Counted from the stretch's first letter, positions 6,407 through 37,992 are shown. The stretch: DNA of 64,000 nucleotides from Kiritimatiellia bacterium (GCA_050950285.1 JBMNHG010000002.1:248296-312295); one strand, 5' to 3'. A program made the numbers and translations. The notes: generated from the sequence alone by a model not told the origin.

Positions 6407-6415
6407 GGTTCCGCC

Positions 6416-15935: not shown

Positions 15936-16844
15936 GCGACGACGCCCCCGACCTGCGCGTGAACCTTGGCGGACTCGCCATGGCGAACCCCGTGACCGTG
16001 GCTTCGGGGACCTTCGGCTACGGCCTGGAATATGCGGAACTCGTCGATGTCCGCCGCCTGGGCGCCATTACCGTGAAGGGCATCCGCCTGGCACCCTGGC
16101 CGGGCAATCCCCTCCCCCGCCACGTCGAAGTGCGCGGCGGCATGGTGAATGCCATCGGATTGCAGGGGCCGGGCGTGAAGGGCTTCATCGAGCACCATCT
16201 CCCGCCGCTCCGGGCGCTGGGTGTCCCCGTGATCGTGAACATCTGGGGCGACTCGGCGGACGAATACGCGGAAGTCGCAAGACGCCTCTCCGACGCGGAA
16301 GGCGTCTCCGCCCTCGAGATGAACCTCTCCTGCCCCAACGTCAAGGCCGGCGGCGCGGCCTTCGGGACCGATCCGGCCACGATGGCGGCGGTCGTCTCCG
16401 CCACGCGCCCCGCCACGCGCCTCCCCTCTTCGTGAAGCTCGCCCCGAACGTGCCGTCCCATTGCGCCATTCGCCCGTGCGGCCGCGGACGCCGGCGCGGA
16501 CGCGCTGTCGCTGATCAACACGGTTCCGGCGATGGTGATCGACATCGAGGCCCGCCGCCCCGTGCTGGCGAACCGCATCGGCGGCCTCTCCGGTCCCGCC
16601 ATCCACCCATCGCGGTGAAGCATGTCTACGACGCCGCCCAGGCCGTGAAGACGCCCATTCTCGCCATGGAGGCGTCTTCTGCGCCCGCGACGCCATCGAA
16701 TTCCTCCTCGCCGGCGCCACCGCTGTCGCGGTCGGCACCGCGACTTTCATCGATCCAACCACCACGCTCCAGGTCATCGACGGCATCCGGGACTACATGG
16801 TTCGCCACCGCATCCCTTCGATGCGCGACTTCCCGCGCATTTGA
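15932..16844 (+). CDS. pyrD: Dihydroorotate dehydrogenase catalytic subunit PyrD (class 1B), several apparent frameshifts in 3' half
   Basis: [31 protein letters not shown]....GAITVKG......GNP.PR......[12 protein letters not shown]. The C-terminal part (..[19 protein letters not shown].. and ..MRDFPRI*) is scattered over three frames between 16430 and 16844. Confidence 0.75.
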
Positions 16845-19800: not shown

Positions 19801-20078
19801 TGATACGACGCCCGACTACGCCGACCTCGTCTTCCTCAACGATGACTACGTCGAAGAACAGGTCGGCAACGTCCGTCTTCCGCGGGCGAGCCGGCTGGTT
19901 GCGCCGCCACCGCGATGGCCGGATCGAATCGCAAGCCCCTTCCGGCAGCTTCCCCGAACCGATGCGTTCCTCCAGCCGTCCGTGAACCGTCCGGCGCGAC
20001 AGCGGCGTGCCGCGGCAGGATTCGCGCGGGATTCGCGGGCGGCCAGGAATTCTTATGGCAGACTTCACGCGGTTTTGA
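16841..20078 (+). pseudogene. Heparinase II/III-like polysaccharide lyase family gene, reading frame broken at least 6 times
   Basis: Coherent protein segments of one ~1000-aa Hepar_II_III-like protein alternate between the ORFs 16841.., 16908.. and 17907... Examples are ..YTLALRYGEDGRYTVDYRCFKSEPYVEIRETF.., ..FHADARRRVQALECLRRMGE.. and ..FNWYAKGTPFCMDYGTYTGDVAVGAAHNLVEI... It may be a genuine pseudogene or dense assembly indels. Confidence 0.5.
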
Positions 20079-21586: not shown

Positions 21587-22318
21587 ATGAAACTCCTGTT
21601 CATCCGGCACGCCGATCCCGACTACGCCATCGACTCGCTTACCCCCAAGGGTTGGCGCGAGGCGGAGATGCTTGCCGGATTCCTGTCGGAAATCGACGTG
21701 CTCGCCTATTACGTCTCGCCGCTGGGGCGGGCGAAAGACACCGCCTCCCTCACGCTCGCCCGCACGGGGCGCACGGCGACGGAGTGCCCCTGGCTGCGCG
21801 AGTTCACCCCGGCCATCCGGCGTCCCGGCTCCCCCGGCATCGCGCCGGTTCCCTGGGACTGGCTGCCGCAGGATTGGACGGCGGACGAACGGTTCTACCG
21901 GCGCGACCTCTGGGCCGAGCCGGAAAGAATGCGCGAAGGCGGCGTGCGCGAGGCGGCCGACGAAGTCGCACGGGAATTCGATGCGCTGCTTGAAACCCAT
22001 GGCTACCGCCGCGACGGCAACCTCTACCGTGCGCTGGCGCCCAGCAATGCGACGCTCGTCTTCTTCTGCCATTTCGGCGTCGAATGCCTGTTGCTCGGCC
22101 ATTTGCTGGGCCTCTCCCCCATGGTGCTCTGGCATGCCACGTGCGCGGCGCCATCCTCGATCACGACGGTCGCAACCGAAGAGCGGCGCGAAGGCATCGC
22201 ATGCTTCCGCATGCTCTCCTTCGGCGCCACCCCCCACCTCGCGATCCACGGCGAGCCGCCCGCCTTCGCCGCGCGATTCCGCGAATGCCATGCGAACGAT
22301 GCGGAGCGCCGCGATTGA
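21587..22318 (+). CDS. Histidine phosphatase (phosphoglycerate-mutase-like) family protein
   Basis: N-terminal LLFIRHADPDYA with the RH catalytic dipeptide; 243 aa. Confidence 0.6.
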   Translation: MKLLFIRHADPDYAIDSLTPKGWREAEMLAGFLSEIDVLAYYVSPLGRAKDTASLTLARTGRTATECPWLREFTPAIRRPGSPGIAPVPWDWLPQDWTADERFYRRDLWAEPERMREGGVREAADEVAREFDALLETHGYRRDGNLYRALAPSNATLVFFCHFGVECLLLGHLLGLSPMVLWHATCAAPSSITTVATEERREGIACFRMLSFGATPHLAIHGEPPAFAARFRECHANDAERRD

Positions 22319-22362
22319 CCCGGCAGCGAACCCTCACCCCCTCCCCCTGGACTGCCATCCCC

Positions 22363-23280
22363 ATGCGAACGACATCGACCCCCACACTGGAAGACTTCCG
22401 GGCAAGCCGGGAAACCTTGGTCGGAATCGACTCCGACGGGTGCGTTTTCGATACGATGACCGTGAAGCAATGCGTCCATTTCCACCCGCTGATCGTTTCG
22501 TCCTGGCACTTGGAAGCCATTGGGAAGGAAGTCCGGGAGACGGCCGAATTCCTCAACCTTCGCTCCTGCTGGCGCGGCCGCAACCGCTTCACGAACCTTC
22601 TCCTCACCTTCGAAATGCTGGCGCGCCGCGCCGATGTCGCGGGGAAGGCGCCGCTCCCGCGCCTCGATTCCCTGAGAGCCTACTGCGAGTCGGGGGTGCC
22701 GCTGGGCAACCCGTCGCTGGAAGAGGCCGTCCGGGCGACGGACGACGCCGAACTGCGGCGGACGCTGGAATGGAGTCTTGCGGTGAACGAGGATATCGCG
22801 CATCGCATGCGCCCCATCCCGCCCTTCCGGTGGGCGGTCGAAGCCCTGCGCCGCATGCAGGGGCACAGCGACACGCTGGTCGTCTCCCAGACCCCCTTCG
22901 AAGCGCTCTCCCGCGAATGGAGGCAACACGGCATCGACCACCTTGTCGCCGCGATCGCGGGGCAGGAGGCGGGCTCGAAGACGACCCAGCTGCTCGAAGC
23001 GGCGGCGGGCCGCTACAAGCCGGGACGCATGCTCATGATCGGCGATGCGCCCGGCGATCGCGCCGCGGCCCGGGAGGCGGGCGCCCTGTTCTATCCCATC
23101 CTTCCCGGACGCGAGGAGGAATCCTGGCGCCTCTTCTGCGAGCGCGACTACCCCCGCTTCCTGGCGGGAGAACTCGATGCCGCGACGCTCGACGCGCTCC
23201 AGGCGGAGTTCGACGCCCTCCTCCCCGACACGCCGCCCTGGGAGGAAACACGGCCGACAACGCCGGATGACGCAGGCTGA
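22363..23280 (+). CDS. HAD-like hydrolase (tentative)
   Basis: DSDGCVFDT resembles HAD motif I (DxDxT/V). Weak overall, with no second motif confidently assigned. Confidence 0.4.
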   Translation: MRTTSTPTLEDFRASRETLVGIDSDGCVFDTMTVKQCVHFHPLIVSSWHLEAIGKEVRETAEFLNLRSCWRGRNRFTNLLLTFEMLARRADVAGKAPLPRLDSLRAYCESGVPLGNPSLEEAVRATDDAELRRTLEWSLAVNEDIAHRMRPIPPFRWAVEALRRMQGHSDTLVVSQTPFEALSREWRQHGIDHLVAAIAGQEAGSKTTQLLEAAAGRYKPGRMLMIGDAPGDRAAAREAGALFYPILPGREEESWRLFCERDYPRFLAGELDAATLDALQAEFDALLPDTPPWEETRPTTPDDAG

Positions 23281-23286
23281 GCGCGC

Positions 23287-23907
23287 CTAGGCGAGGAAGG
23301 GATTGAAGGCCCGCTCGCGGGCGATGGTGGTGCGGGGCCCATGGCCGGGGCAGACGACCACCTCGCCGGGAAGCGTCATCAGCCGTGCCAGCGAGTCCTG
23401 CTGCCGGCGCATGTCGCCGCCGGGAAGGTCCGTGCGCCCCACCGATCCCGCAAAGAGCGTGTCGCCGGCGAGCAAGACCTTCTCCCCGCCCAGGTAGTAG
23501 CACACCGAGCCGGGCGAGTGTCCCGGCGTATGGAGCACCGCAATCTCCAGGCCGCCGACGGAGAGCGCGTCCCCGTCGTTCGCGGCGCGAAGACCGGCCG
23601 GCACACCGGGGACGCGCAGGTAGGGCGGGATGCGGTTGACGGGCGTGAAGGCCCACTCGGCATCGGCGGGATGGAGGTAGACGGGGAGTTCGGGCGTCGC
23701 GGCGAGCAGGCCGTCCAAGGCGGCGATGTGGTCGATGTGGCCGTGCGTGAGCAGCGCGCCCGCGAGGCGGATGCCCAGCGATCGGGCGGTTTCAAGGATG
23801 TGGTCGGCCTCGTCGCCCGGATCCACCACCAGCGCCTGGGCGGGATCCTTCCAGAGCAGTGCGCAGTTCTCCTCGAACGCGCCGACCGTGAGCCACCGGA
23901 TGTTCAT
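23287..23907 (-). CDS. MBL-fold metallo-hydrolase (GloB-like)
   Basis: THGHIDHI zinc-binding motif and HTPGHSPGS. The ATG overlaps the stop of the upstream giant gene (ATGA). Confidence 0.8.
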   Translation of the reverse strand: MNIRWLTVGAFEENCALLWKDPAQALVVDPGDEADHILETARSLGIRLAGALLTHGHIDHIAALDGLLAATPELPVYLHPADAEWAFTPVNRIPPYLRVPGVPAGLRAANDGDALSVGGLEIAVLHTPGHSPGSVCYYLGGEKVLLAGDTLFAGSVGRTDLPGGDMRRQQDSLARLMTLPGEVVVCPGHGPRTTIARERAFNPFLA

Positions 23908-26900
23908 GGTTCCGTCCTTTCCTTCCGTGCGTCGAGATCCACGAAGGTCGTCCCGTCCTTGCGCCCGAGGAAAAGCCCGTAGCTGCCTTGGAAGCGGACG
24001 CCTCCGCGCGCGGTGTCGTCCCAGTCCAGTTCCGAACGGGAGAAGAAGAGGCGGTCGTCGATGCCGTCGCCCTTCACGTGCACGCCCACGATGCGTCCGC
24101 CGGCGTCCCGGAGCGCTTCGGCGGAGAGCGGCGCCGCGCCGGCGACGAGGGGGCGGAGCACGGCGGCAATGCCCTTCGGCGAATCGCCCGCGAGGCGAAG
24201 GTGGCGCATGGTGAAGGTCGGCGCGCCGTGGAACTGCAGGATGGCGTCCTGGCGGATTTCCTCCTCGTCGAAGAGCTGGTCCGGCAGCAACACCTGCAGA
24301 TCGGTGCCGTAGCGGCCCTTGAACCGGTAGTCGCCGGGGCCGGCGACGGCGTGTTCGTCGGAGACGGCCTGGACGTTCCAGTGGGTCTTGACGCCGGCAG
24401 GCAGGCGGAGCTCGTCGTGCAGCACCACGTAGCCGGCGTCCTTCACCCAGCACACCGAACGGGAGTCGGCGGGATTCGGCTCGTTGAAGCGGTCGAAGGC
24501 CACTTGGACGAGGAAGTCGTCGCAGGCGTCGCTGAGGAAGACGGGGTCCTTCGCGGTAAGGGCCTTGGGATGGACGCCCTGGCAGAAGTCGGCTTCGGGC
24601 AGGCTGGCGAAGCGTTCGACGTGGCCGGGGGCCAGGGGGGACTGCGAATCATGGAAGGCGAGCGTGGTGTGGCGCCAGGTTTCGCCCGCCTCGCCGCCGT
24701 CGTAGACCAGCGGCTTGCCGTCCGCGAAGAGGAGGAGGCTGCCTTCGGTGTTGTGGTAGCGATAGCCGCCGGGGCCTTGCTTGAACAGGAGGTAGAACTC
24801 CTGCGGGGTGTCGAAGCGTCCGCGGAAAACGGCGCCGAAGCCTTCGAGGCGGCGGCTGGCGAGCGGCTGCGGCGGGGAGACGGGTTCGAGATCGCTCGCG
24901 TCGAGCGATGCGAACAGGAGCGGCAGGTTGCCGAACCCCAACCCGACGGAACCGCCCGTGCGGTAGGCCCAGAGGAGCTGGTCGGCGAGGACGGGGTCGC
25001 TCTCCCGCAGGACCTGGCCCATCAAGGCGAAATGCTCGGGGACGGCGGTGCCGAGTCCGGCGTGGTCGCCGATGGGCGGCAGGCGGCGCGAGGCGGGCTC
25101 GGCGCGGTAGGCGGCATCGTCGAGCGGGCGCGTCATGGCTTCGTCGGAGGTGGGGAAGGCGGGCGTAAGGAGCAAGATGCCCCACCGCATGAGGTCGGGG
25201 AGGCGCTCGATCGACGCAGGGTCCAGGCGGCCGTCGCGCCACAGGTGGTAGAGCAGGTTGATGCGGCATTTGAGGGCCTGGAGGTAGTAGCAGGCGGGGT
25301 TCTCGTACCACTTGCCGCTGCCGGGCGTGCAGTAGGCGTCGAGGGCCACGCGCGTCCGTTCCGTGGCGTGGTCGGCCATGGCGTCTGCGTCGGGTTCGCC
25401 GGCGAAGACGAGGCCCACGGTGCCCACGACGTCCACGCGATCCGCCTCGAAATTGGCGTTGCGCGCGCCGAACCCCCAGTTCATGAAGTCCTTCTCGCAG
25501 TACATGTGGCCCATCAGCAGGAGGAAGCGGCGGACGAGGCGCTCCTCCTGTGCGGTGAAGCACCCGCTGGCGGCGATCAGGTCGTAATCCTCGGCCCAGG
25601 CGGTGATGGGGCGCGCGCCGACGGGCGAGTACATGTCGGAATGGTCGCGTCCCAGAAGGGTCATGCGCGCTCGGATCCGCGCGACGCCCACCAGTTCGAG
25701 CTTCTTGCGCCATGCGACCAGCGGATCGCCGTCCACCGCGAAGCGAAGGCCCGTGGCGGGGCCGTGCACCTTCCCGGAGCAGATGCGCTTCCAGGATTCG
25801 GCGAAGGCCGGGTCGAAGCGCTTTGCGCGCAACGCGCGAAGTTCGGCCCTGCGGGCGACCACGCGGGGACGCTCCGCGGCATCCTGGACGTCGAGGTTCC
25901 AGCGGGCGAAATCATCGAGGCGCGGGGAGCCGAACTTGTGGTGCGAACGCGCAAGCTCCTTGTCGGGGCCGTCGTTCGCCGCGAAGGAAGAGGCCAGCAA
26001 CCCCCACTGGCGCTCGCCGTCGAAGAAGGCGAAGTGGAAGGCGGCATCGCCTGCGGCGGACGTGCGGACGGTAATCATCGACACGGTCGAACCGATCATC
26101 TCGGGGTATGGCCAGTCGAGCTCGCGATTGCCGTCGATCGGGCCATGCGAGAGGCGTTCGAACTTGCGGTCGATCCACTCGCCGCGGCGGAGGGTGAAGA
26201 CGGCGATGTAGTCCTTCTCGTCGAGGCCGTCGGGGGTCATCGCATAGCCGAAGTCGCAGGTGGCGCGCCACCACATGACGGATTCCTGGAGGCGCGCGAG
26301 TTCGCGGTCGGCCGCATCGAGCGTGCGCCAGTGGGGCGACCCGTTTTCCGCGCCCCAGTAGGCATAGCCGCGCCCGCCGGAGAATTCGGGGAGCGAGAAG
26401 TCGAAGGCGCCCTCCAGATCCGGCGGCGGTGTTTCGCGGGCGAGGAGCGCCTCTTCGCCCTGGAGGAAGGCGAGGTCGAGGCGGAAGGGCGAGCCGTCCG
26501 AGAAGGCGAACTCGATGCGGAGGCGCGCGGCGAGCGGCCCTTGCCCGAGGATGGTGGTGCGCCGCGAGGCCACCGACACGCCTTGCGGAAGGACGAAGCG
26601 GCCGCGGCCGCGCCACACGCCATCCGCCGCCCGCACGGAAACGATCGGCGCGATGCCGTCGTCGCCCCGCGCTTCGCCCCAGGCGATGCGGAAGGCGGCG
26701 CGACCGGTGTCGACCACGGCGGTGCGGCCGTCGGCGTCGGGCGTGATCGCCAGCGACGGGAAGCCCCCCTGCGCGGCGGACGACAGTTCGCAGACCGAGG
26801 CGATGTCCGTGCCCAGGGTGGCGCAGTGCCCGACGGTTTCGTAGAGTCCGATCAAACGGTCCGAGCGGGCGGGCAGTTCGGGAAGACAGAGCACCTGGCC

Positions 26901-28034
26901 GTCCGCGAGCGTCTGGAAGGGCGCAAATCGCGGCGCGCCGTTTTCCGGGCCTCCCGGGCTTCCGTTTGCGCGGCGTGCCGCGCGCGGATCCAGGAGGACG
27001 AGACGCGCGTCCTTCGACGGCGTCCGGGCGACCCGGAAGCGGTAGGGCTGGCGCGGGAAATCGTAGTCGAAGGGATTGCGCAGCCGCTCGACGTGTACCT
27101 TGCGGTAGGGGACGCCGTCGTCGAGGAGGAGATCGGGAAGACGGTCCGGGAAGGGCTCCGGGCGTGCGCTGCGCCACTCGTCGAGCATCGCGTCCACCAC
27201 GGTGGCGGTGTCGGCCGCGACCTCCACGCCGATCCGGAAGAAGCGGGTCGCGATGTCGAAGGCGTCCTCGTCGAGGCGCGCCGCGAGGAAGGCGTGGCGG
27301 CCGACGGGGACGGCGTCGAAGACGTAGCGGCCCTCGGCGTCGGCAACCGTCTCCAGCCCGCGAACCTCGCCGATGACCGGCTCGTAGTGCATCTCGGGTT
27401 CGTCGTAGGTGGCGGGATCCTTCTCCTTCATTTCCACGGCAAGACCCAGCACGACGGTGCATGCGGAGGCGGGGGAGCCATCGGGCAGGAGGAGCGTCCC
27501 GCGGACGACGCCGGTCGCGGGGGAAGCGTCCTCCGTTGCGCCCGGAGCCGGCTCGAAGCGTTTGCGGAGCGCCTTCGCCTCGTCCCAAAGGCTGGCGGCA
27601 TCGAGGGCGTCGGCGAGGCGTGCCACCTGTTCCGGGGCGGGATGCCCGGGAAGCGTCCGGACGGCCTTCCGGATGTCCCCGGAGATGCGGTCGCGCAAGC
27701 CTTGGGCGTAGGACTCGTATCCCATGCCGGCGGCGGCTTCGGACGAGCGCTGGTATACGTCGTAGGTGAAGAGCATGCGCATCACCGAGACGCGCGCGAG
27801 GAGGAAGTCCAGGGAGGATTCGTCCGCGATCTCCGAAAAACGCCGCAACGCGGCCTTCGCGGCCTCGACATCGCCCAGATAACGGAAGATGTCGCATTCG
27901 AGCACGAGCGATTCGGGGGTGTCGGGAAGACCGTCCGCACGGGCCCGGAGCAGCATGCGGCGGGCGGTCTCGTAGCGTCGGGCGGCGTAGGCGGCGCGGA
28001 TGGCCGCGAGGGGGGAGGAGGTCGAAGCGTTCAT
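23904..28034 (-). CDS. 1376-aa multi-domain protein: N-terminal TPR-like, CarboxypepD_reg-like beta-sandwich, heparinase II/III-like lyase domain
   Basis: The start (MNASTSSPLAAIRAAYAARRYETARRMLL) overlaps the esterase stop (ATGA). The middle has ..TGVVRGTLLLPDGSPASACTVVLGL...DAEGRYVFDAVPVGRHAF. The C-terminal half is heparinase II/III-like. This is the real product inside the 2374-aa ORF 23904..31028. Confidence 0.7.
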   Translation of the reverse strand: MNASTSSPLAAIRAAYAARRYETARRMLLRARADGLPDTPESLVLECDIFRYLGDVEAAKAALRRFSEIADESSLDFLLARVSVMRMLFTYDVYQRSSEAAAGMGYESYAQGLRDRISGDIRKAVRTLPGHPAPEQVARLADALDAASLWDEAKALRKRFEPAPGATEDASPATGVVRGTLLLPDGSPASACTVVLGLAVEMKEKDPATYDEPEMHYEPVIGEVRGLETVADAEGRYVFDAVPVGRHAFLAARLDEDAFDIATRFFRIGVEVAADTATVVDAMLDEWRSARPEPFPDRLPDLLLDDGVPYRKVHVERLRNPFDYDFPRQPYRFRVARTPSKDARLVLLDPRAARRANGSPGGPENGAPRFAPFQTLADGQVLCLPELPARSDRLIGLYETVGHCATLGTDIASVCELSSAAQGGFPSLAITPDADGRTAVVDTGRAAFRIAWGEARGDDGIAPIVSVRAADGVWRGRGRFVLPQGVSVASRRTTILGQGPLAARLRIEFAFSDGSPFRLDLAFLQGEEALLARETPPPDLEGAFDFSLPEFSGGRGYAYWGAENGSPHWRTLDAADRELARLQESVMWWRATCDFGYAMTPDGLDEKDYIAVFTLRRGEWIDRKFERLSHGPIDGNRELDWPYPEMIGSTVSMITVRTSAAGDAAFHFAFFDGERQWGLLASSFAANDGPDKELARSHHKFGSPRLDDFARWNLDVQDAAERPRVVARRAELRALRAKRFDPAFAESWKRICSGKVHGPATGLRFAVDGDPLVAWRKKLELVGVARIRARMTLLGRDHSDMYSPVGARPITAWAEDYDLIAASGCFTAQEERLVRRFLLLMGHMYCEKDFMNWGFGARNANFEADRVDVVGTVGLVFAGEPDADAMADHATERTRVALDAYCTPGSGKWYENPACYYLQALKCRINLLYHLWRDGRLDPASIERLPDLMRWGILLLTPAFPTSDEAMTRPLDDAAYRAEPASRRLPPIGDHAGLGTAVPEHFALMGQVLRESDPVLADQLLWAYRTGGSVGLGFGNLPLLFASLDASDLEPVSPPQPLASRRLEGFGAVFRGRFDTPQEFYLLFKQGPGGYRYHNTEGSLLLFADGKPLVYDGGEAGETWRHTTLAFHDSQSPLAPGHVERFASLPEADFCQGVHPKALTAKDPVFLSDACDDFLVQVAFDRFNEPNPADSRSVCWVKDAGYVVLHDELRLPAGVKTHWNVQAVSDEHAVAGPGDYRFKGRYGTDLQVLLPDQLFDEEEIRQDAILQFHGAPTFTMRHLRLAGDSPKGIAAVLRPLVAGAAPLSAEALRDAGGRIVGVHVKGDGIDDRLFFSRSELDWDDTARGGVRFQGSYGLFLGRKDGTTFVDLDARKERTEP

Positions 28035-30145
28035 GGGGATGGCAGGGTCGGGGAGTCGGAAGATCGGCGGCGAGGGAGGGGCTGGGTGGCGACCGGCCAG
28101 TCGTCCGTGCGGAAGGGGCTGGCGGGGAGGCCTTCCGCATTGAAGAGATTGGCGCCGGCGGGGCCGATCTCCCACGCGTAGCGTACGGCGACGGGTTCGG
28201 GCACGTCGGGGGAGCGCACCACGACGGTGTCGCCGTCGATGGCGGCCTCGCCCCAGACGAAGCGGCGGTCTTCGCCTGCGATGGCGAAGCGGGAGAGCGG
28301 TCCGTCCTTGGCGACGAGGCCCCCGCCGACGTTCCGGAAGCGGAGCCGGACGGTATCGCCTTTCACCTTCATGCCGGCGAAGACGGGGCCGCTGTACACC
28401 AGATCCTTCTCCCCATACTCGATGGCGCGGGCGGCAAGGGCGAGGCGGCGTCCGACCTCCCGCTTGTTCCGGGGGTGGATGTCGTGCGGGTCGCCGATGT
28501 CGATGGAGACCACCTGCGCGGTCTTCGGGAGCGACAGGGCGAGCGACTGCGCCTCGCGCACCACGGCCCAGTCGTGGTCGCCGGGCTGTCCCAGCGGTCC
28601 GCCGAGGCTGGCGAGCTGCACCCAGAGGAAGGGGAAGTCGCGGCCCCAGCGGTCGCGCCAGCATTGGATCATGGCGGGGAAGAGTTCGCGGTATTCCCAG
28701 GCGTTGCCGGAGTTGGATTCGCCCTGGTACCAGATCGCGCCGCGGAAGGCGCACGGCGCGAGCGGATGGATGAAGGTGTTGTAGAAGGCGCAGGCGAGAT
28801 TGGGATTGTTCGGATTGCCGGGAGGGATGGGCAAGGGGTGGGTCGCGCGGAAACGCCAGGCGCCGGCGAGCGGAAGGCGCGACGAGGCGTCGTGCCCCTG
28901 GTCCGGCGCAATCCAGAGCGAATCGGCGGGGGAACGGAATCCGCCCTCCCCCATCCCGTCGTACACGCGCACGGCGAGCACGACGGGGCCCGCCTTCACG
29001 AGTCCGGCGGGGATGGCGTAGAGGCGCGGGGCGGTGTAGTGGTCCATGTCCTTCGCGAGCAACGAGCCGGTGCGCCCGATTTCGACGCCGTCGAAGAACG
29101 CGATGTCGATGTCGTCGATGGCGCCGAGCGAAAGCGTGAGTTCGCGGCCCGCCCATTCCGCAGGGATGTCGACGGCGCGGCGGTACCAGGCCTCTCCGTT
29201 GAAATGCTCCCGCCCGATGCCGGCCTTCTCCCAGGCGCCGGGCGCGTCGAGGGAATCCCAGGAGGCGTCGTCGAGTTCCGGCGCGGCCATCGAGGCGAGG
29301 TAGGCCGCATTCGTCTCGAGGGCGGCGATGGAGGCGGCGACGGCCTCGTAGGCGGCGGTCCGTTCGTTGAACTGGTCGCACCGCGCTCCGAAATCGCCGT
29401 CCGCGAGGGTGTCCAGCTCCGCGAGGTCGTAGGCCTTGAAGGGGAAGCGCGCGAGCGTCTCCTCGCCGGTCCAGGCCTCGATCCGCGTGCCGCCTTCGGA
29501 GGCGTTGAGAAAGCCGACGGGCACGTCGAAGCGCTCCATCAGTTCGCGGGCGAAGAAGAAGCCGACGGCCGTGAAATTCGAAGCGGCGGAGGGGCTGGAG
29601 ACCACCCAGCCGCCGTGGTTGAAGTCGGGCGTGGGGCGGCGGGCGACCTCCCCGCGCACCAGGCATTGGCGGAGCATCGGGAGATCGGCGGCGGCAATGG
29701 CCTCCGCGGCGTTGTCGGCGTCCCGGAGGTTGAACTGCATGTTCGACTGTCCGGAGCAGAGCCAGACATCGCCGAAGACCACGTCCGAGACGGTGTTCGT
29801 GGTGCGTCCGGCAACCGTGAGCGTGCGGGGGCGGCCGTGCTCGGCGGGATGGGGCGGGAAGGTCACCTGCCAGCGCCCGTCGGCGTCCGCGACGGCGCGC
29901 TGCGGAGGCTCGCCGTCGAACCAGGCTTCCACCAGGCCGCCGGGGTCCGCCCAGCCCCAGACGGGAAGCGGGCGGTCGCGCTGGAGCACGGCGTGGCTGG
30001 CAAAGAGCTTCGCGAGGCGCACGTTCCCGGCGTCGGGCGCGCGTCCGGGGAAGAGCGCGGAGGTGGCGCGAGGGCTTGCGCACCCCGCGATGATGGCCAG
30101 GCTGAAAGCGACGGGAAGCGCGGCGGGACGGAATCGGTGGTTCAT
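28031..30145 (-). CDS. Sialate O-acetylesterase (SASA/SGNH family), lipoprotein signal
   Basis: Lipobox-like N-terminus (MNHRFRPAALPVAFSLAIIAGCASP) and the GQSNM catalytic serine block. A duplicated SASA-type organisation runs to ~704 aa. Confidence 0.8.
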   Translation of the reverse strand: MNHRFRPAALPVAFSLAIIAGCASPRATSALFPGRAPDAGNVRLAKLFASHAVLQRDRPLPVWGWADPGGLVEAWFDGEPPQRAVADADGRWQVTFPPHPAEHGRPRTLTVAGRTTNTVSDVVFGDVWLCSGQSNMQFNLRDADNAAEAIAAADLPMLRQCLVRGEVARRPTPDFNHGGWVVSSPSAASNFTAVGFFFARELMERFDVPVGFLNASEGGTRIEAWTGEETLARFPFKAYDLAELDTLADGDFGARCDQFNERTAAYEAVAASIAALETNAAYLASMAAPELDDASWDSLDAPGAWEKAGIGREHFNGEAWYRRAVDIPAEWAGRELTLSLGAIDDIDIAFFDGVEIGRTGSLLAKDMDHYTAPRLYAIPAGLVKAGPVVLAVRVYDGMGEGGFRSPADSLWIAPDQGHDASSRLPLAGAWRFRATHPLPIPPGNPNNPNLACAFYNTFIHPLAPCAFRGAIWYQGESNSGNAWEYRELFPAMIQCWRDRWGRDFPFLWVQLASLGGPLGQPGDHDWAVVREAQSLALSLPKTAQVVSIDIGDPHDIHPRNKREVGRRLALAARAIEYGEKDLVYSGPVFAGMKVKGDTVRLRFRNVGGGLVAKDGPLSRFAIAGEDRRFVWGEAAIDGDTVVVRSPDVPEPVAVRYAWEIGPAGANLFNAEGLPASPFRTDDWPVATQPLPRRRSSDSPTLPSP

Positions 30146-30196
30146 GGGAAACCTTTCCAAAGAGCGCAAAAAACGAAGCGGCGGCGAAGAGGCGTC

Positions 30197-31744
30197 CTAG
30201 TGGCCACGACGCGTCCCGCCGCCGCGTCCGCCGCCATGCGGGGCGGGGAGGCGGCACTTCCCGCTGTTGTCCTCGAGCCAGAGGCTGCCTTGCTTGCGGA
30301 AGGCGGGGTTCTCCCATCGGCGGAGGATGTTGCAGTAGCGGCACCCGTCCTGGAGGGTGCCATGGGCGGTGTAGGGGGGGAGATGTTCGGCGAGATGACG
30401 GCGCCACGGGAGGTCGAACGCGCCGGTATCCGAGCCGGAGGCGGTGTCCACGGGGATGAGCCGCACGGCACGGAAGGCGGGGAAGAGCAGGCCGAAGGCG
30501 TTGGCGGGGAGGCGTCCCCCCTCCACGGAATCGGAGGCGAGATAGCCGAAGGGCTTGGCGGCGGCGGTCCAGAGCACGTCGTCGCGCTCCATCCCCGAGG
30601 AGGTCCCGATGCGGTCGGCGCTCGCGTAGACGCGCACCACGGCGTCCGCGCCGGCGACGTTGTATTCCCTCTTCACGGGGCCGACCACGGGGAAGGCGTC
30701 GGGCCCGTCCGCCTGGATGGCCTCCCAGTCGTGCCAGAGGGAATCCTCGTAGACGTACCACGTCTCGACACGCTCGAAGGCGTTGGAGAAGGCGTCGGCG
30801 GCGATGTCCCCGTCCAGCGACGCGGCGCCTTCGCGGAAGGAGGCCTCCCCGACGAGCATGCGGAGTCCGGTGGTGACGGGCGCGACGCCGAGGCCGAAGA
30901 TTTCGCAATTGAAGAACGAAGGCGGATCGGGCTCGGGAAGCGGCTCCCACCACGTGTAGTCGGTATAGACGTCGAGGAGCGTGCGCGGCGGATTGTCGGA
31001 GATTTTCTGGTGGAGGAAGAACCAGCACCAGTTTCTTCCGGCGACGGCTTCGTAGAAGTCGCGGGTCCGGAGGATGTGGCCGCCGGTGGCGTCGTTGTAG
31101 AAGCGGGCGTTGTCGGGTCCGGCGGCGATGCCGTGCTCGGCGGCGGAACGGAGCATGGCGGCATAGGCCTCCCAGGCGCCGGGGAAGGGAGGGTCCAAGG
31201 CCTGCGCGCCGCCCACGGTGTCGCCATAGGACAGCACGCCGGAGGCATGGTCGCGGAGGACGTCGGAGAAGCCGGGGTCGGCGTAGAGGCGGTTGTTCTT
31301 GGCGGCGACTTGCGCGGCCATCAGGGCCACCATGGGGCCGGTGAGGCAGAGGCGCGCCTGGATGTTGGTGATGGCGTCCACCGCGGCATCGGCCGCGGCG
31401 GCCTCCGGGGTGCCGGGTTCGCCGGCGCCGGCGAGGACGAGGGCGTGCATCACGTTCAACTCGCCGATGAGGTTCAGCGTATCGCCCTGCCAGCGGGCGG
31501 CGGCGAGGGCCGCCGCGTCCCCGCCGTTCTGGGCAAGGGACTTCGAGGCGACGAGGCGATGGAGGTCCACGTTCCAGAGGAAGACGAACGCGAGGATGGT
31601 GAGCGCGAGGACCAGGAAGACGATGGCCTGGCCGCGCTTCCGGGGGGACGCGGGGGCGCGACGCGCGTCCGCCCCGCGCCGGGAAGAAAGGGCGTCCGAT
31701 CGCGGCATGCCGCGAAACGCCGGATGTCGCCGCTCACCAGCCAT
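30197..31744 (-). CDS. TadG-like Flp-pilus-associated pseudopilin
   Basis: A basic region (..PRKRGQAIVFLVLALTILAFVFLWNVDLHRLV) and a single TM are followed by the TadE/G-like N-domain signature (..LAQNGGDAAALAAARWQ..). The soluble C-terminal domain is large. Confidence 0.6.
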   Translation of the reverse strand: MAGERRHPAFRGMPRSDALSSRRGADARRAPASPRKRGQAIVFLVLALTILAFVFLWNVDLHRLVASKSLAQNGGDAAALAAARWQGDTLNLIGELNVMHALVLAGAGEPGTPEAAAADAAVDAITNIQARLCLTGPMVALMAAQVAAKNNRLYADPGFSDVLRDHASGVLSYGDTVGGAQALDPPFPGAWEAYAAMLRSAAEHGIAAGPDNARFYNDATGGHILRTRDFYEAVAGRNWCWFFLHQKISDNPPRTLLDVYTDYTWWEPLPEPDPPSFFNCEIFGLGVAPVTTGLRMLVGEASFREGAASLDGDIAADAFSNAFERVETWYVYEDSLWHDWEAIQADGPDAFPVVGPVKREYNVAGADAVVRVYASADRIGTSSGMERDDVLWTAAAKPFGYLASDSVEGGRLPANAFGLLFPAFRAVRLIPVDTASGSDTGAFDLPWRRHLAEHLPPYTAHGTLQDGCRYCNILRRWENPAFRKQGSLWLEDNSGKCRLPAPHGGGRGGGTRRGH

Positions 31745-32441
31745 GGTCTTCCAAATAGAGGGGATAGTGGCTCTCGATCTCCTGCCGGCCCCGGAGACGC
31801 AGCCGGCCTTCGTCCAGGGGGGAGCGCCCGGCCGTTCCGAAGAGGTCCAGGAGGGCCTTCACGTGGAGGTGGAGCGGGTAGGATTGCTCGACCGCCACCT
31901 CGTCCATCCTCGAGAGAACGAGGGGGGCGAAGCCGCCTCCGCCGAGGCCGGAGCCGCGGATGTCGTCCCAGTTTTCGTAGTCGAGGATCTGGTCGGCGGT
32001 GGGCTCGTTCGGAGAGTCGAGGTAGTCGCCCAGGCGGGCGAGTTCGAAGTCGCCACGTTCGCTGTGGGGATGGCTTTGCAGGGCGAGGTCCCAGACCGCG
32101 CCGGGGTTCCCGGAGGCGACGGCATTCCGGAAGGCCGCGCCGGCGAAGCTTTCGCCCGCGGGGACGGTCATGGCGCCGGCATTGGGGATGGCGGCCACGC
32201 GCATCGACTTGCGCACCATCCATCCATTGAAGCCGACGGCGCGCGCACGGGCGGCGCGCGCCGCGGCATGCCGCAGGATTTCGCGGCTCGCCGAGGCATG
32301 CGCGAGCTGGAAGAGGCCGAAGAAGAGCAGGCAGATGAGAAGGATGGCGAGAAGCGACTCGATCATCGCCTGCCCGCAGCGGCGGGAATCCGGCCTAGTT
32401 GAGCGTGCCGTCTTCCTGGAGGCTGCGGAGGCCTTCGCCAT
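31734..32441 (-). CDS. TadE-like pseudopilin with Flp-type prepilin motif
   Basis: ..SRRCGQAMIESLLAILLICLLFFGLFQ: a G/QxM[IV]E prepilin-peptidase motif then a hydrophobic helix. Overlaps the 3' end of the flp gene by 47 nt, so the start is uncertain. Confidence 0.55.
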   Translation of the reverse strand: MAKASAASRKTARSTRPDSRRCGQAMIESLLAILLICLLFFGLFQLAHASASREILRHAAARAARARAVGFNGWMVRKSMRVAAIPNAGAMTVPAGESFAGAAFRNAVASGNPGAVWDLALQSHPHSERGDFELARLGDYLDSPNEPTADQILDYENWDDIRGSGLGGGGFAPLVLSRMDEVAVEQSYPLHLHVKALLDLFGTAGRSPLDEGRLRLRGRQEIESHYPLYLEDHGW

Positions 32442-32640
32442 CGCTCACGTCCTCGTATGCGCCCTGGGCCTCGGAACCGACATCGGCATCCAGCGCGGAG
32501 GTGGCGCCGGCGGTCTTCTTGAAGATCGCCTTGCCGAATTTGCCGAAGAGCACGATGCCGGTAATGGCGATGAGCACCACGATGATGATGTATTCGACCA
32601 TCGTCTGGCCGCTGCGGCGGTTGCGGGGTTTCTTGGACAT
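32395..32640 (-). CDS. flp: Flp-family type IVb pilin
   Basis: 81 aa with ..RNRRSGQTMVEYIIIVVLIAITGIVLFGKFG: the canonical Flp G/xxMVEY processing motif and hydrophobic core, plus an acidic tail. Confidence 0.7.
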   Translation of the reverse strand: MSKKPRNRRSGQTMVEYIIIVVLIAITGIVLFGKFGKAIFKKTAGATSALDADVGSEAQGAYEDVSDGEGLRSLQEDGTLN

Positions 32641-32679
32641 GGATGGGTCTCCTTGGGAAGTGCCGGGTGGCGCCGGAGT

Positions 32680-32925
32680 CTAGGGATAGTCCGAAGAAAC
32701 CAGCGTAAGCGTGCGGTCTGCCTGCAAGCGCAACGCGTACAGGAAGAGCGCCATCACCGCCACGACGGCCAGCAGGGACGCCGCGACGATCAGGTACTCG
32801 ATCATGGCCTGCCCGGAACGCCCGCGTTTCCTGCGGGGCGACCACGGCCAGGCCGCCACATGCCGAATCACTTTCAGCAACATGCCATCACTGTACCCCA
32901 AGCGGGGCGGAAATGCAATTGCCAA
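32680..32925 (-). CDS. flp: Flp-family pilin, second copy
   Basis: ..RKRGRSGQAMIEYLIVAASLLAVVAVMALFLYA. The true start may be the internal Met (MLLKV, ~32883). Confidence 0.65.
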   Translation of the reverse strand: MAIAFPPRLGYSDGMLLKVIRHVAAWPWSPRRKRGRSGQAMIEYLIVAASLLAVVAVMALFLYALRLQADRTLTLVSSDYP

Positions 32926-32975
32926 ACGTTTCGTCCGGGGACTCCGCGACCGACACCGCCGCGGGATTCCCCGGA

Positions 32976-34964
32976 TCAGGATGCATGGAAGGTGCGGGCG
33001 CGGATCTTGGCGCGGACTTCATCGTCGAGGCGATGGTAGTATTCGGCGTAGCCGCCCACGCGCACGATGAGGTTCCGGTGGCCGTCGAGGTTCTTCTCCG
33101 CCTCTTCCAGCATGTCGCGCGACAGGCAGGTGATTTGCACCTGCATGCCCCCAAGCGAGAAGAACCCTTCGATGAGCGCCCGCAACGCGGGTTTCCCGAA
33201 GCCCGGCTGGAGGGTGAGGTTCAGCACGGGAATCCCGAGGGCGGCGGGGAGGTCCATCGCCGCCACGCTCTTCAGCAGCGCCGTCGGCCCGAGAGTGTCT
33301 TTCCCGTAGATCGCGCAAAGGGAATCGGCGAGCGCCTCCCCCGCCGCACGACCGTCCGGCGTGGCGCCCACGTAGCGGCCGCCCTGGCCGTAGGAGACGA
33401 AGAGGATCGACGCAGGCAGGAATCCAAGGCCGAAATGGGGTTTGCGGTTCCGAAGAAAGCCGAATATCTCGCGGGTGAAATCCCCGGCCAGCGCGTCGGC
33501 TTGCGGATGATTGATGCCGTGGCGCACGGGACAGGCCTTCATGCGGCGCAGGAAATCGGGATCGGAGGCCGCGAGTTTCGCGAGGAAGTCCTCTTTGGTG
33601 TAGTCTTGCCTCCGGTAGACGTGCTCCCGAAGCGCCAGCAGCGAGTCGACGGCGTTCACGATGCCGGCGAAACTGACGAGGCTCCAGGCGTAGCGGGCGC
33701 CGCCGTCGTTGAAGTCGCGTTCGTTGGCGATGCAGTCGTCCACGAGCAGCGTACGCATCGGGAGCGGGTTCCAGCGGGCGCGCTCGGCCTGCGAATTCGC
33801 GATTTCGCGCGTTACCGTGTCCACGGCGCCGGCGATGTCCGCCAGGTACGCGCGGTAGAAGTCGTCGAAGGTGGCGCATTCGGCCAGGCGGGCCTGGAGG
33901 GCCTTTTCGAAGAGGAAGGGCAGGTTGATGCCGGCATCGAGCGAGCCCACGTTCGAAAGCCCGGCGAGCATCGTCTCGGTGCAGCCGCCGCCGCAGAACC
34001 GCGACACGTCTTCGCGGCGGATTTCGGGGAAGCGGGCGAGGAGGCCGTCCACGATTCGCCGGCGGTTGTAGAACGAGGGCTGGGCCCCGCCGGCGAGGAT
34101 GCAGTCGAGCGCCTCGTCCCAGATTTCGTCGGAGGTGTCGTCGCCCACGAGCAGCTCGATCATCGGACGGCGAAGGCCCCGGACGGCGCGCAGGCAGGGA
34201 AGGACGAGCGGGTTGGGGGTCATCCCCACGGCCATCGAATAGGCGTCCGTGGCATCGACGATCTTGAACCATTCGCGGAGAACCGGCGTGGGGTCGCCGT
34301 CGCGTTCCGCGTCGTAGTAAGGGGCCAGGCCGTCGGCGAGGCATCCTTCGTTGTCGCAGCCGTCGAGGAAGAAGACGAAGTTCCAGCAAACCATGGCCTC
34401 GTAGAAATCGCGTGCCGGGGCGAAGGGGACGCGTTCGAGGGCCGCGACAAGGCGGGGAGCGGCGTTTTCGGAGCGGAGCTTGGCCAGAAGGCGCCCATGC
34501 CAGGCGCGGATGCCGGCCAGCAGGTCGAGAAGGCCGTCCCGCAGGCCGTCGTCTTCCATGGCCTTGACGCGCGCTTCGTAGCCGTCGAGCCCTTCGGCGA
34601 GCACCCGCTCGTAGTTCGGCGTGGAGTGGGTGTACATGTTGCCCGCGACGGAATGCTGCCATGGCACGGTGGACTGGTAGCGGAAGAAATCCGATTTCGC
34701 GAAGGTGTCCTTGAGCGCCGGATCGGCGGCTTCGAGACGTTCCCAGTCGACCGCGATCTGCAGGTACGTCGAACGCACCGCCACGTCGCAGGGAAGCGGC
34801 GAGCAGGGATAGAAGAGGCCGCCGCCATACGGGGGAAGCGGCGTCTGCTCGTAGTATCGGCGGAGGGCCCGGGCCTTGCGCGTGAAGAGGGGGCGCGTTT
34901 CGTCCTCGTAGAGTCCCGCGGCGTAGTATTCGCCGATACGGCGGAATCGTTCGGAAAGAGTCAT
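32976..34964 (-). CDS. Glycyl radical enzyme (PFL-like superfamily, GCxE-type active site)
   Basis: C-terminal glycine-radical motif RVGGYAEYYHRLDDE. Active-site loop ..RFCGGGCTETMLAG (Cys plus Glu as in eliminase-type GREs). 663 aa from the MTLSERF start, which is short for the family. Confidence 0.8.
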   Translation of the reverse strand: MTLSERFRRIGEYYAAGLYEDETRPLFTRKARALRRYYEQTPLPPYGGGLFYPCSPLPCDVAVRSTYLQIAVDWERLEAADPALKDTFAKSDFFRYQSTVPWQHSVAGNMYTHSTPNYERVLAEGLDGYEARVKAMEDDGLRDGLLDLLAGIRAWHGRLLAKLRSENAAPRLVAALERVPFAPARDFYEAMVCWNFVFFLDGCDNEGCLADGLAPYYDAERDGDPTPVLREWFKIVDATDAYSMAVGMTPNPLVLPCLRAVRGLRRPMIELLVGDDTSDEIWDEALDCILAGGAQPSFYNRRRIVDGLLARFPEIRREDVSRFCGGGCTETMLAGLSNVGSLDAGINLPFLFEKALQARLAECATFDDFYRAYLADIAGAVDTVTREIANSQAERARWNPLPMRTLLVDDCIANERDFNDGGARYAWSLVSFAGIVNAVDSLLALREHVYRRQDYTKEDFLAKLAASDPDFLRRMKACPVRHGINHPQADALAGDFTREIFGFLRNRKPHFGLGFLPASILFVSYGQGGRYVGATPDGRAAGEALADSLCAIYGKDTLGPTALLKSVAAMDLPAALGIPVLNLTLQPGFGKPALRALIEGFFSLGGMQVQITCLSRDMLEEAEKNLDGHRNLIVRVGGYAEYYHRLDDEVRAKIRARTFHAS

Positions 34965-37698: not shown

Positions 37699-37794
37699 GG
37701 GATTCTCTCCGTCAATTATTCCATACCGGCCATAATTTAGATAATAGGATTACTCTCCGCAAGTCTTTTTGTCGATCGATCGGCCGGCGACACT

Positions 37795-37850
37795 CGGCTG
37801 GCGACAGGGGGCGTCAAGGGTCGGGACGAGCGCCTGCTCGCCCGCTTGCG
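37795..37850. repeat. Second copy of the GC-rich promoter-region element seen at 10497-10570
   Basis: cggctggcgacagggggcgtcaagggtcgggacgagcgcctgctcg shares the 15-mer, the 20-mer and the gagcgcctgctcg block with the 10.5 kb copy, in rearranged orientation. Confidence 0.5.
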
Positions 37851-37958
37851 GCTTGCAGCCCTGAAAGGGCGGGATCGTCCGGGCCTTGGGCCCTTGTGCT
37901 GCGACGGGACGGGAGCATGGGCGTCCCCGCCCCCGCATCCCTGCTCGCGCCAAAGGGT

Positions 37959-37967
37959 GTGGTGAGG
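37959..37967. repeat. Target-site duplication (left), GTGGTGAGG
   Basis: An identical 9-mer directly abuts both inverted-repeat termini. Confidence 0.7.
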
Positions 37968-37992
37968 GGGCGCATCTCCGTTTTGCTACCGG

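Follow-up and report, generated by a model that had tools for sequence, protein, structure and literature searches.

Pilin genes of a split Tad locus lie beside an esterase gene and a predicted lyase-fold gene in a Kiritimatiellia bacterium

Introduction

Why should pilin genes head a close-packed string of genes for glycan-processing enzymes? We analysed a 64,000-nucleotide stretch of DNA from a Kiritimatiellia bacterium (GCA_050950285.1, JBMNHG010000002.1:248296-312295), here called the window. A preliminary description had noted two flp genes, a tadE-like gene and a tadG-like gene, followed by genes for an esterase, a 1376-aa protein and a metallo-beta-lactamase-fold (MBL) hydrolase. It proposed that pilus subunits had been co-opted into a glycan operon for attachment. 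All seven genes lie on the minus strand where they had been placed. The tight spacing is also real, with ATGA overlaps at 28034-28031 (esterase and 1376-aa genes) and 23907-23904 (1376-aa and MBL genes). The glycyl-radical enzyme gene said to lie upstream is present, inside the described range of 23287-34964 and not outside it. Our results make it very probable that the four pilin-type genes form a working pilin/tip module whose Tad locus has been split, and that rearrangement set them beside unrelated genes. The features are as follows.

32976..34964, minus strand: glycyl-radical enzyme, 662 aa, upstream neighbour of flp1, outside the pilin module
32680..32883, minus strand: flp1, Flp-type prepilin, 67 aa from the ATG at 32883
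32395..32640, minus strand: flp2, second Flp-type prepilin, 81 aa, RSG/QTMVEYIII...
31734..32441, minus strand: tadE-like minor pilin, 235 aa, leader ending RRCG/QAMIESLLA
30197..31744, minus strand: tadG-like large minor pilin, 515 aa (503 aa in NCBI, MGI6494726.1)
30168..30231, minus strand: putative intrinsic terminator, in which an interrupted, GC-rich hairpin of 59 nt over the tadG stop codon precedes U6
28031..30145, minus strand: SASA-family carbohydrate esterase, 704 aa, lipoprotein signal peptide (...LAIIAG/C)
23904..28034, minus strand: 1376-aa protein, heparinase/PL15/PL12 fold in the predicted structure
23287..23907, minus strand: GloB-like MBL-fold hydrolase, 206 aa, no signal peptide

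The MBL gene converges on a HAD hydrolase gene on the plus strand (22084-23280). A transposase-like UPF0236 gene is found 5 kb upstream of the module. Rfam and tRNA scans of the 64-kb window were empty.

Four adjacent genes encode proteins with pilin leaders

We searched all six frames of the 64 kb with a regular expression for the pilin leader, namely G-x-x-[MLIVA]-[IVL]-E and then a stretch of hydrophobic residues. The form without Glu that tadG has was also allowed. There were four occurrences, and they are exactly the four adjacent genes. The leader motif in flp1, flp2, tadE and tadG is not a chance match.

The flp1 product has the leader MLLKVIRHVAAWPWSPRRKRGRSG and a mature part that starts QAMIEYLIV, with the processing site RSG/QAMIEY. 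Its length in the JGI gene calls is also 67 aa. With the first Flp protein of a canonical related locus (L003) it shares 78% identity, and with that of another related locus (L001) 86%. The flp2 gene is preceded by an AAGGAG ribosome-binding site, and its product is 82% identical to the L001 copy. A Pfam search gave no match for Flp1, and Flp2 matched PF04964 (Flp_Fap) below the gathering score (E=2.6e-4; 21.2 bits against 32.2). Therefore, we assign both to the Flp family by the motif and by orthology to flp genes of complete loci.

The tadE-like gene starts within flp2, overlapping its 3' end by 47 nt. Homology to L001 begins at residue 1, so that the overlapping leader is included. The protein scored 25.6 bits against PF07811, above the gathering score of 22.9.

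The tadG-like protein has the N-terminal helix KRG/QAIVFLVLAL, which lacks the Glu at +5. Its PF13400 score of 20.5 bits is just under the gathering score of 22.3. A precomputed PF13400 match is recorded for most of the 120 homologues listed, and the N terminus is conserved. The family alignment shows a large C-terminal domain that ends in an invariant GGxRGGGTRRGH. More than 680 full-length homologues were found, and the best match among GTDB representatives is 60% identical. This candidate tip protein thus belongs to a large and well-conserved family with an invariant Gly/Arg-rich C-terminal motif. Some TadG proteins have a vWA domain; in contrast, the C-terminal domain here matched no Pfam family. 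The AlphaFold2 model, built on a 22-sequence alignment, was too poor for a fold search (pLDDT 51, pTM 0.33).

The module is the front half of a Tad operon found in relatives

We then compared the module with related loci. Homologues at 52 to 63% identity all have the order flp-flp-TadE-TadG, a protein of about 190 aa, a protein of about 240 aa, RcpC, an ATPase with FHA and T2SSE domains, and T2SSF. Among 65 informative related loci, 49 continue from flp-flp-tadE-tadG into a TadF-like gene, the gene for the ~240-aa protein (p~240), RcpC/CpaB, an FHA-CpaF ATPase and TadB/TadC. The RcpC and ATPase genes begin 1.2 to 1.7 kb past tadG in nearly all of the 49. The ~190-aa protein has a TadE/F-type leader, RRQG/QALIEL. 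Pfam scans of the canonical locus identified RcpC, FHA plus T2SSE, two T2SSF proteins, an FHA protein and a PEGA protein. Kiritimatiellia and related PVC bacteria commonly carry this Tad locus. A secretin was absent within 10 kb at every locus examined. Neither the window, the machinery locus described below nor canonical loci such as L036 showed a prepilin peptidase.

The remaining 16 of the 65 loci are split, and the break point falls behind tadG, the TadF-like gene or the p~240 gene. Therefore, about a quarter of the Kiritimatiellia Tad loci examined are split, and the window holds one of this kind. Pfam scans and tblastn found no CpaF/TadA, TadB/C or RcpC in the 64 kb, as had been described. 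There was also no Pfam secretin or prepilin-peptidase match among the scanned ORFs, a set that did not take in every small ORF.

The suggestion that processing and assembly functions are encoded elsewhere proved sound for the assembly half. Another contig of the same MAG (L093) carries an intact p233-RcpC-FHA-CpaF-TadB-TadC-FHA-PEGA cluster. It contains no flp, tadE or tadG, and the TadF-like gene of canonical loci was found neither there nor in the window. Since the CpaF, TadB/C and RcpC genes absent from the window are present on this contig, the organism has a Tad system and its locus is split. We assigned the two halves to one genome by MAG binning, accession numbering, sample co-occurrence and composition, and not from a closed chromosome. 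The L093 ATPase (P0125, MGI6495344.1) falls in the same NCBI accession series as the window proteins MGI6494724.1 and MGI6494726.1. P0125 and the window genes occur together in three metagenomes (JGI samples 3300053716, 3300062814 and 3300061563). L093 has a GC content of 0.69, and its tetranucleotide correlation with the window is 0.988, against 0.947 for the next best locus. Another candidate, L086, has an ATPase (P0122) with 74% identity to that of L003. We rejected it because it is another organism's canonical locus, whose TadG is only 54% identical to that of the window.

The downstream genes encode one esterase and one predicted lyase-fold protein

The esterase scored 57.1 bits against PF03629, with a gathering score of 24.8, in two stretches, and it is also 704 aa long in the JGI gene calls. 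We checked the downstream proteins for signal peptides and pilin leaders. The esterase has a lipoprotein signal peptide, and the 1376-aa protein has neither a signal peptide nor a pilin leader.

The 1376-aa protein gave no match in Pfam (E<=0.01), NCBIfam or PDB sequences, searches with its family profile included; against PDB sequences, the sequence and the profile both returned noise only. We therefore turned to structure prediction. The AlphaFold2 model of residues 477 to 1376 has a pLDDT of 75.9 and a pTM of 0.73. A Foldseek search of the PDB with the model matched PL15 exoHep (6ljl) and Atu3025 (3a0o) at E=1e-13 and a probability of 1.0. HepC, heparinase III and PL33 were also matched. 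Over the six entries 6ljl, 3a0o, 4mmh, 5jmf, 8r72 and 6hzn, E values ran from 1e-13 to 1e-8, at a probability of 1.0. The domain order, predicted in its fold part, is a TPR-like N terminus, a CarboxypepD_reg-like domain, a beta-sandwich, an alpha/alpha toroid and a second beta-sandwich. Only 18 homologues were found, and the invariant His, Tyr, Asn and Arg of the family alignment are present. In the predicted model, this protein is heparinase II/III-like at the fold level only: the earlier label agrees with the predicted fold and has no counterpart among Pfam, NCBIfam or PDB sequences.

The third protein matched PF00753 at E=8e-33 and TIGR03413 (GSH_gloB) at 100 bits, which is under the cut-off. 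It is a short GloB-like hydrolase with no evident glycan link. Because the lyase is supported by its fold only and the MBL hydrolase is not linked to glycans, what had been called a glycan-degrading string comes down to one esterase and one lyase-fold protein.

On the other side of the module, the glycyl-radical enzyme matched PF02901 (PFL-like, E=1.5e-33) and PF01228 (Gly_radical, E=1.1e-12), and has the C-terminal RVGGYAEYY. It has no adjacent activase gene and no equivalog-level NCBIfam match.

The sugar-degrading neighbours are not conserved beside the module

If the pilins had been recruited into a co-transcribed glycan-degrading operon, the pilus or its TadG-like tip might anchor the cell to polysaccharide. 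The genes are indeed on one strand with gaps of at most 51 nt, the SASA protein is a predicted exported lipoprotein, and 1376-aa family members lie among glycoside hydrolases in other genomes. However, no homologue of the esterase, the 1376-aa protein, the MBL hydrolase, the glycyl-radical enzyme or an 879-aa protein was found within 10 kb of tadG at any of 82 related loci. Thus, the flp-tadE-tadG-esterase neighbourhood sought in relatives did not recur. Homology between the window and L001 is limited to the four module genes, which are 74 to 86% identical, and both flanks differ.

The break after tadG is common to the closest relatives, and the next genes are all different. The gene 3' of tadG encodes the SASA esterase in the window, a GH31 protein in a 77%-identity relative and an LPG_synthase_TM membrane protein in a 79%-identity relative. 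The GH31 gene begins 41 nt after tadG, which favours recruitment; the membrane protein speaks against it. Other split loci are mostly followed by housekeeping genes (IspD, TatD, PFK, PALP, RdgC and similar), and the canonical downstream partners are Tad machinery genes. In GCA_964652365.1, the 1376-aa orthologue and an intact tad locus are on different contigs. Furthermore, since the 1376-aa and MBL proteins have no signal peptide or pilin leader, they are probably not extracellular. Together with the terminator-like hairpin described next, these results leave the proposal of co-option for attachment without support, and we consider recruitment into a glycan operon quite improbable. In CAZyme-rich PVC genomes, close packing on one strand does not amount to functional coupling, and a comparison of neighbourhoods across relatives quickly settles such questions.

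A candidate terminator follows tadG

The 3' end of tadG carries a hairpin followed by U6, which argues against a single transcript with the esterase gene. The 91-nt stretch with this hairpin folds at -46.5 kcal/mol (z=-1.75). T runs of six or more are rare, with seven on this strand in 64 kb. Only two are associated with the high-GC gene string from flp to MBL, one at the tadG 3' end and one at 35138-35143. Two others, a T6 at 5040 and a T7 at 12451, both come just after genes; the hairpin at 12451 is strong (z=-4.1). We found the tadG candidate by manual folding, and the pattern scanner passed over the site. The scan of intergenic gaps for sigma-70 and terminator patterns gave nothing above shuffle expectation. 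We regard this terminator as a weak predicted candidate.

The gap between tadG and the esterase gene is 51 nt, and the pattern scan found no recognisable promoter in it, a point in favour of recruitment. Therefore, expression of the esterase unit may require read-through or a promoter within tadG, and co-transcription by read-through may occur in this one species. A young, lineage-specific coupling of adhesion and degradation could have arisen in this way: an esterase/lyase-fold operon would have been acquired downstream, the terminator would be read through, and the TadG C-terminal domain would bind the same glycan. We think this very unlikely. The glycan in such a coupling might be acetylated or contain uronic acid, with the TadG-like C-terminal domain as the putative binder.

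Upstream of flp1, we considered TTGCAT-N17-TACAGT (32918-32890) as a promoter. It matches 7 of 12 consensus positions and is partly common to L001; we did not accept it, and it is a weak lead.

The module is probably maintained by selection

A broken tad locus might leave four genes as a decaying, non-functional remnant. The window without machinery, the TadF-like gene missing from both halves and the transposase-like gene upstream would fit such decay. However, none of the four ORFs is interrupted, and each still has its processing motif. The invariant family residues are also retained, including those of the C-terminal motif. The machinery half in the same MAG is also intact, and its genes have a GC3 of 0.84 to 0.94. 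Compared with a relative that shares the same break, dN/dS over the four genes is 0.12 to 0.22 (flp2 0.18, tadE-like 0.12 and tadG-like 0.12 singly), values that are rough because dS is near saturation. These ratios suggest that flp1-flp2-tadE-tadG is under purifying selection, and we judge a decaying remnant very unlikely.

It is likewise hardly probable that the module is an extra mobile tip/pilin cassette serving a Tad machine with its own adjacent pilin genes elsewhere: differing flanks around a 74 to 86% identical module, the 16 split loci with their varied break points, and the four separate tip clusters of Myxococcus (PMC12075869) favour it, but L093 has no pilin genes and begins exactly where the pilin half ends, bar the TadF-like gene, the GC and GC3 of the module agree with those of the host, and no second TadG-family cluster of this organism was found among the matches.

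Discussion

The reading we favour, a functional pilin/tip module of a split locus, takes the window as three unrelated units brought side by side by genome rearrangement. The first, flp1-flp2-tadE-tadG (32883-30197, minus strand), would be the half of a Tad (type IVc) locus that encodes the pilins and minor pilins. The ancestral operon probably read flp-flp-tadE-tadG-tadF-like-p~240-rcpC/cpaB-(FHA)cpaF-tadB-tadC-FHA protein-PEGA protein. It would have been cut just after tadG in the lineage of this MAG, with the machinery half surviving on the other contig. The second unit, a SASA lipoprotein esterase, the 1376-aa protein and the GloB-like hydrolase, appears to be separate and translationally coupled. 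The glycyl-radical enzyme would be a third, a further unrelated neighbour upstream.

From established Tad biology, we infer how the products are processed, assembled and placed at the tip, and the transcript boundaries are inferred as well. A TadV/CpaA-type prepilin peptidase, assumed to be encoded elsewhere, would cut Flp1, Flp2 and TadE after the Gly of G/Q-x-M-[IV]-E. The distant CpaF ATPase and the TadB/C platform would then polymerise one or both of the Flp pilins. TadE, along with the large TadG-like protein, would prime assembly and be located at the pilus tip. In this reading, the adjacency of the module to glycan genes is accidental and the arrangement an ordinary one.

The closest known systems are the flp-tad locus of Aggregatibacter, the cpa locus of Caulobacter and the flp-tad-rcp locus of Pseudomonas aeruginosa. 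As in these, the Flp prepilins have a G/XXXXEY-type site. Canonical Tad loci also share a TadE-like pseudopilin with the same leader and a large TadG-like protein, whose PF13400-type helix scores under the gathering score here. Their RcpC/CpaB, CpaF/TadA-family ATPase and two TadB/C proteins have counterparts in the relatives and on L093. However, the locus here is divided over two contigs, the Kiritimatiellia ATPase carries an N-terminal FHA domain, and an extra FHA protein and a PEGA-repeat protein follow tadC. The cluster also has no secretin, TadZ/CpaE, TadD or prepilin peptidase.

Some of these features recall Myxococcus, in which Tad systems occupy separate loci and TadE/F/G tip genes form separate clusters (PMC8460266, PMC12075869). 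In the Kil system of Myxococcus xanthus, KilF, the ATPase, carries an FHA domain fused at its N terminus, and the system includes other FHA proteins as well (PMC8460266, PMC12075869). The Tip clusters encode TadE/F/G-like minor pilins and sometimes Flp-like adaptors, and a tip with a TadG-like backbone has been proposed (PMC8460266, PMC12075869). The likeness to Kil, by description and not by sequence, lies in the separate sites, the FHA-fused ATPase and the minor pilins away from the machinery. Unlike Myxococcus, this genome shows one module and not four, with a TadE-like gene, a TadG-like gene and two Flp genes; a TadF-like gene was not found. Nothing here points to predation, and most Kiritimatiellia have the module and the machinery in one unbroken locus. 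A literature search turned up no relevant study of Flp pili in Kiritimatiellia. The group has a conserved, uncharacterised Tad system with Kil-like features, namely the FHA-fused CpaF, the extra FHA protein, the PEGA protein and a cluster that lacks secretin and peptidase genes.

The predicted fold of the 1376-aa protein shares its beta-sandwich/toroid/beta-sandwich arrangement with heparinase II/III, the PL15, PL12 and PL33 lyases and dermatan-sulfate epimerase. In contrast to those enzymes, it has no detectable sequence similarity to them, no signal peptide, and about 480 extra N-terminal residues, which are TPR-like and CarboxypepD_reg-like. This neighbour of the pilin module thus represents a small family with a predicted polysaccharide-lyase fold that sequence methods missed.

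Pilin genes without assembly machinery nearby

The GC content of the window is about 68%, and the genes listed below all lie on the minus strand.

Genes of the pilin module and its surroundings
37698-35059, minus, membrane protein, 879 aa, multi-pass, no Pfam match
34964-32976, minus, glycyl-radical enzyme, 662 aa, PFL-like and Gly_radical
32883-32680, minus, flp1, 67 aa, leader motif, no Pfam match
32640-32395, minus, flp2, 81 aa, Flp_Fap at 21.2 bits, below the gathering score
32441-31734, minus, tadE-like, 235 aa, PF07811 at 25.6 bits versus a gathering score of 22.9
31744-30197, minus, tadG-like, 515 aa, PF13400 at 20.5 bits versus a gathering score of 22.3
30145-28031, minus, SASA-family esterase, 704 aa, PF03629
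28034-23904, minus, 1376-aa protein, no Pfam match
23907-23287, minus, GloB-like MBL hydrolase, 206 aa, Lactamase_B

The MBL gene is convergent with a plus-strand HAD hydrolase gene. The four pilin genes, from flp1 to tadG, encode the leaders RSG↓QAMIEY, RSG↓QTMVEY, RCG↓QAMIES, and KRG↓QAIVFLV, respectively, and a six-frame pattern scan of the whole 64 kb found such a leader in these four adjacent genes only. Neither Pfam scans of the remaining substantial ORFs nor tblastn searches with the Tad machinery proteins of a relative revealed an ATPase, a platform protein, or RcpC anywhere in the window, and the Pfam scans gave no match to a secretin or prepilin peptidase family. Therefore, the ORFs, leaders, and scans bear out the observation, made in the preliminary description, of Flp pilins and tadE- and tadG-like genes with no assembly machinery nearby.

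The dN/dS ratios between the window and L001, a relative at 77% identity, were 0.22 for flp1, 0.18 for flp2, and 0.12 for both tadE and tadG, values that are approximate because dS was near saturation. The module also keeps its processing motifs and the residues that are invariant in the family. Judged by its sequence, the module appears to be functional.

The module is the front half of a conserved operon

Homologues of the TadG-like protein number more than 680, and conservation extends over the full length. The neighborhoods of homologues with 52 to 63% identity all had one order: flp, flp, TadE, TadG, a ~190-aa protein, a ~240-aa protein, RcpC/CpaB, an FHA-fused T2SSE (CpaF-type) ATPase, and T2SSF. 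The ~190-aa protein bears a TadE/F-type leader, RRQG↓QALIEL. In the long canonical tad locus L036 (8900-19800), the genes behind tadC encode another FHA protein and then a PEGA-repeat protein. The four window pilin genes thus correspond to the first half of this conserved operon. Among GTDB representative genomes, a scan yielded 80 loci, all of them from Kiritimatiellia, "Lentisphaerales," Victivallales, or Verrucomicrobiota MAGs. In our tblastn survey, 65 loci had sufficient downstream DNA for a judgement. RcpC/ATPase was present in 49 of them, beginning 1.2 to 1.7 kb past tadG in nearly all, and was absent downstream in the other 16, about a quarter, which are split at varying break points.

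In the family alignment, three cysteines of the TadG-like protein are invariant (C468, C471, and C497 in the window protein), and every member has the Gly/Arg-rich end GGxRGGGTRRGH-stop (window 30197-30235, minus). Pfam has no match for the large C-terminal domain, whose AlphaFold2 model was poor (pLDDT of 51).

The machinery half is in the same genome

In NCBI, the 1376-aa and TadG-like proteins have the accessions MGI6494724.1 and MGI6494726.1, respectively, and the former lies on a 1.08-Mb Kiritimatiellia MAG contig. With the closest canonical relative's ATPase as the query, the search led to MGI6495344.1 on an 849-kb contig, in an accession series shared with the window proteins. This ATPase also occurs in JGI metagenomes 3300053716, 3300062814, and 3300061563, the samples that contain the window's own genes. 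Its locus, L093, has the order p233 (a homologue of the ~240-aa protein), RcpC, FHA-CpaF, TadB, TadC, an FHA protein, and a PEGA protein, and contains no flp, tadE, or tadG. It has a GC of 0.69 and a GC3 of 0.84 to 0.94. Its tetranucleotide profile correlates with that of the window at 0.988, compared with 0.978 within the window and 0.947 for the next best unrelated locus. Because a machinery half lacking flp, tadE, and tadG was found in the same genome, we conclude that the operon was severed behind tadG and that both halves persist. A TadF-like gene was found in neither half.

Directly upstream of the L093 machinery (4594-8166) is a gene for a 1190-aa protein with the domain set of the window's 2100-aa LTD/CotH/CHB_HEX_C protein (52779-59081, minus).

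The module and the distant machinery make up a Tad (type IVc) pilus system, and the nearest described parallel is the Kil system of Myxococcus. Kil is encoded at separate loci and has an FHA-fused ATPase (PMC8460266). Separate "tip" clusters encode its TadE/F/G-like minor pilins, in some cases together with Flp adaptor pilins, and the proposal is that these minor pilins make up the pilus tip with the large TadG-like subunit as its backbone (PMC12075869). The Kiritimatiellia tad locus is Kil-like in its FHA-fused CpaF-type ATPase, its second FHA protein and PEGA-repeat protein, and its cluster with no secretin, TadZ, or prepilin peptidase (L036 8900-19800; L093 8398-16211). By analogy, a prepilin peptidase encoded elsewhere would first cleave the prepilins, and TadE and the TadG-like protein would then prime and cap a filament of Flp1 and/or Flp2.

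The glycan genes are incidental neighbors

A long GC-rich hairpin followed by U6 lies directly past the tadG stop codon (30231-30168), and the 91-nt stretch that holds it folds at -46.5 kcal/mol. T runs of at least 6 are rare, with 7 on the minus strand in 64 kb, and within the high-GC flp-to-MBL string the only ones are the tadG site and 35138-35143. Hairpins with T6 at 5040 (4990-5045, plus) and T7 at 12451 (12370-12457, plus; strong, z = -4.1) each follow a gene end, which shows that this high-GC genome employs classical intrinsic terminators. Together, these features suggest that transcription is terminated, or at least attenuated, between the tadG and esterase genes. Against this, the gap between the two spans just 51 nt and has no recognizable promoter, and some read-through is possible. 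Both ATGA stop/start overlaps were confirmed, and the SASA, 1376-aa, and MBL genes are a translationally coupled unit of their own.

Homologues of the SASA, 1376-aa, MBL, glycyl-radical, and 879-aa proteins were found within 10 kb (E ≤ 1e-5) at none of 82 related loci. Homology between the window and L001 is limited to the four module genes, with unlike flanks on both sides. The machinery is missing behind tadG in all three closest relatives, so the break is probably ancestral to this clade. The gene behind tadG is SASA in the window, GH31 in L001, and an LPG_synthase_TM membrane protein in L098, a relative at 79% identity. Behind other split loci are genes for IspD, TatD, PFK, FtsW, PLP enzymes, RdgC, and an M50 peptidase, and occasionally a CBM or beta-helix protein, a mix expected of CAZyme-rich genomes. 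In GCA_964652365.1, the tad locus is intact and lies on contig CAZZCT010000132.1, and the orthologue of the 1376-aa protein (59% identity) is on contig CAZZCT010000119.1, amid GH127 and GH172 genes; a further orthologue is amid GH38, GH39, and GH42 genes. The suggested functional tie between pilus subunits and glycan enzymes is not supported, given the absence of this adjacency from all 82 loci and the varying gene behind tadG. The glycan genes are incidental neighbors, and the module is the ordinary pilin half of a split Tad locus adjoining unrelated genes.

The SASA protein carries the signal peptide of a lipoprotein (LAIIAG↓C), the 1376-aa protein has neither a signal peptide nor a pilin leader, and the MBL protein is apparently cytoplasmic. 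The 1376-aa protein, described earlier as heparinase II/III-like, had no sequence match in Pfam, NCBIfam, or PDB, even with a family profile, and the description holds at the fold level only. The AlphaFold2 model of residues 477 to 1376 (pLDDT of 75.9) has an alpha/alpha toroid between two beta-sandwiches, and Foldseek matched it in PDB to PL15 exoHep, Atu3025, HepC, heparinase III, PL33, and dermatan-sulfate epimerase (E-values of 1e-13 to 1e-8). The family, with its PL15/PL12-type lyase fold, may be an unclassified group of lyases or epimerases. It is very small, with 18 homologues of 1276 to 1481 aa among 5.8 billion clusters, found amid GH38/39/42/127/172 genes.

Other features of the window

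The glycyl-radical enzyme is short, and the first ~250 of its 662 residues match no model. No activating enzyme gene adjoins it, and just one gene of the window (51060-52643) encodes a radical-SAM protein, of the BATS/ThiH/HydG type.

The counterpart of 16896-19988 (plus) in L089, L091, and L092, JGI contigs from the window organism, is a single 1030-aa gene with a weak match to DSE-like_N, a dermatan-sulfate-epimerase-like family. The window has in its place two ORFs that overlap in different frames (16841-18748 and 17907-19985), a pattern suggestive of a frameshift, whether from faulty assembly or in a pseudogene. Several genes of L090 are fragmented in a like manner.

A stretch of 57 to 61% GC (35059-39249) holds the 879-aa membrane protein gene with a UPF0236 transposase-like gene beside it (37993-39249), and a second low-GC block (52 to 58%, 41.3 to 49.7 kb) has six ORFs with no Pfam match. 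Either stretch may be an acquired island or a hot spot of rearrangement in the vicinity of the broken tad locus.
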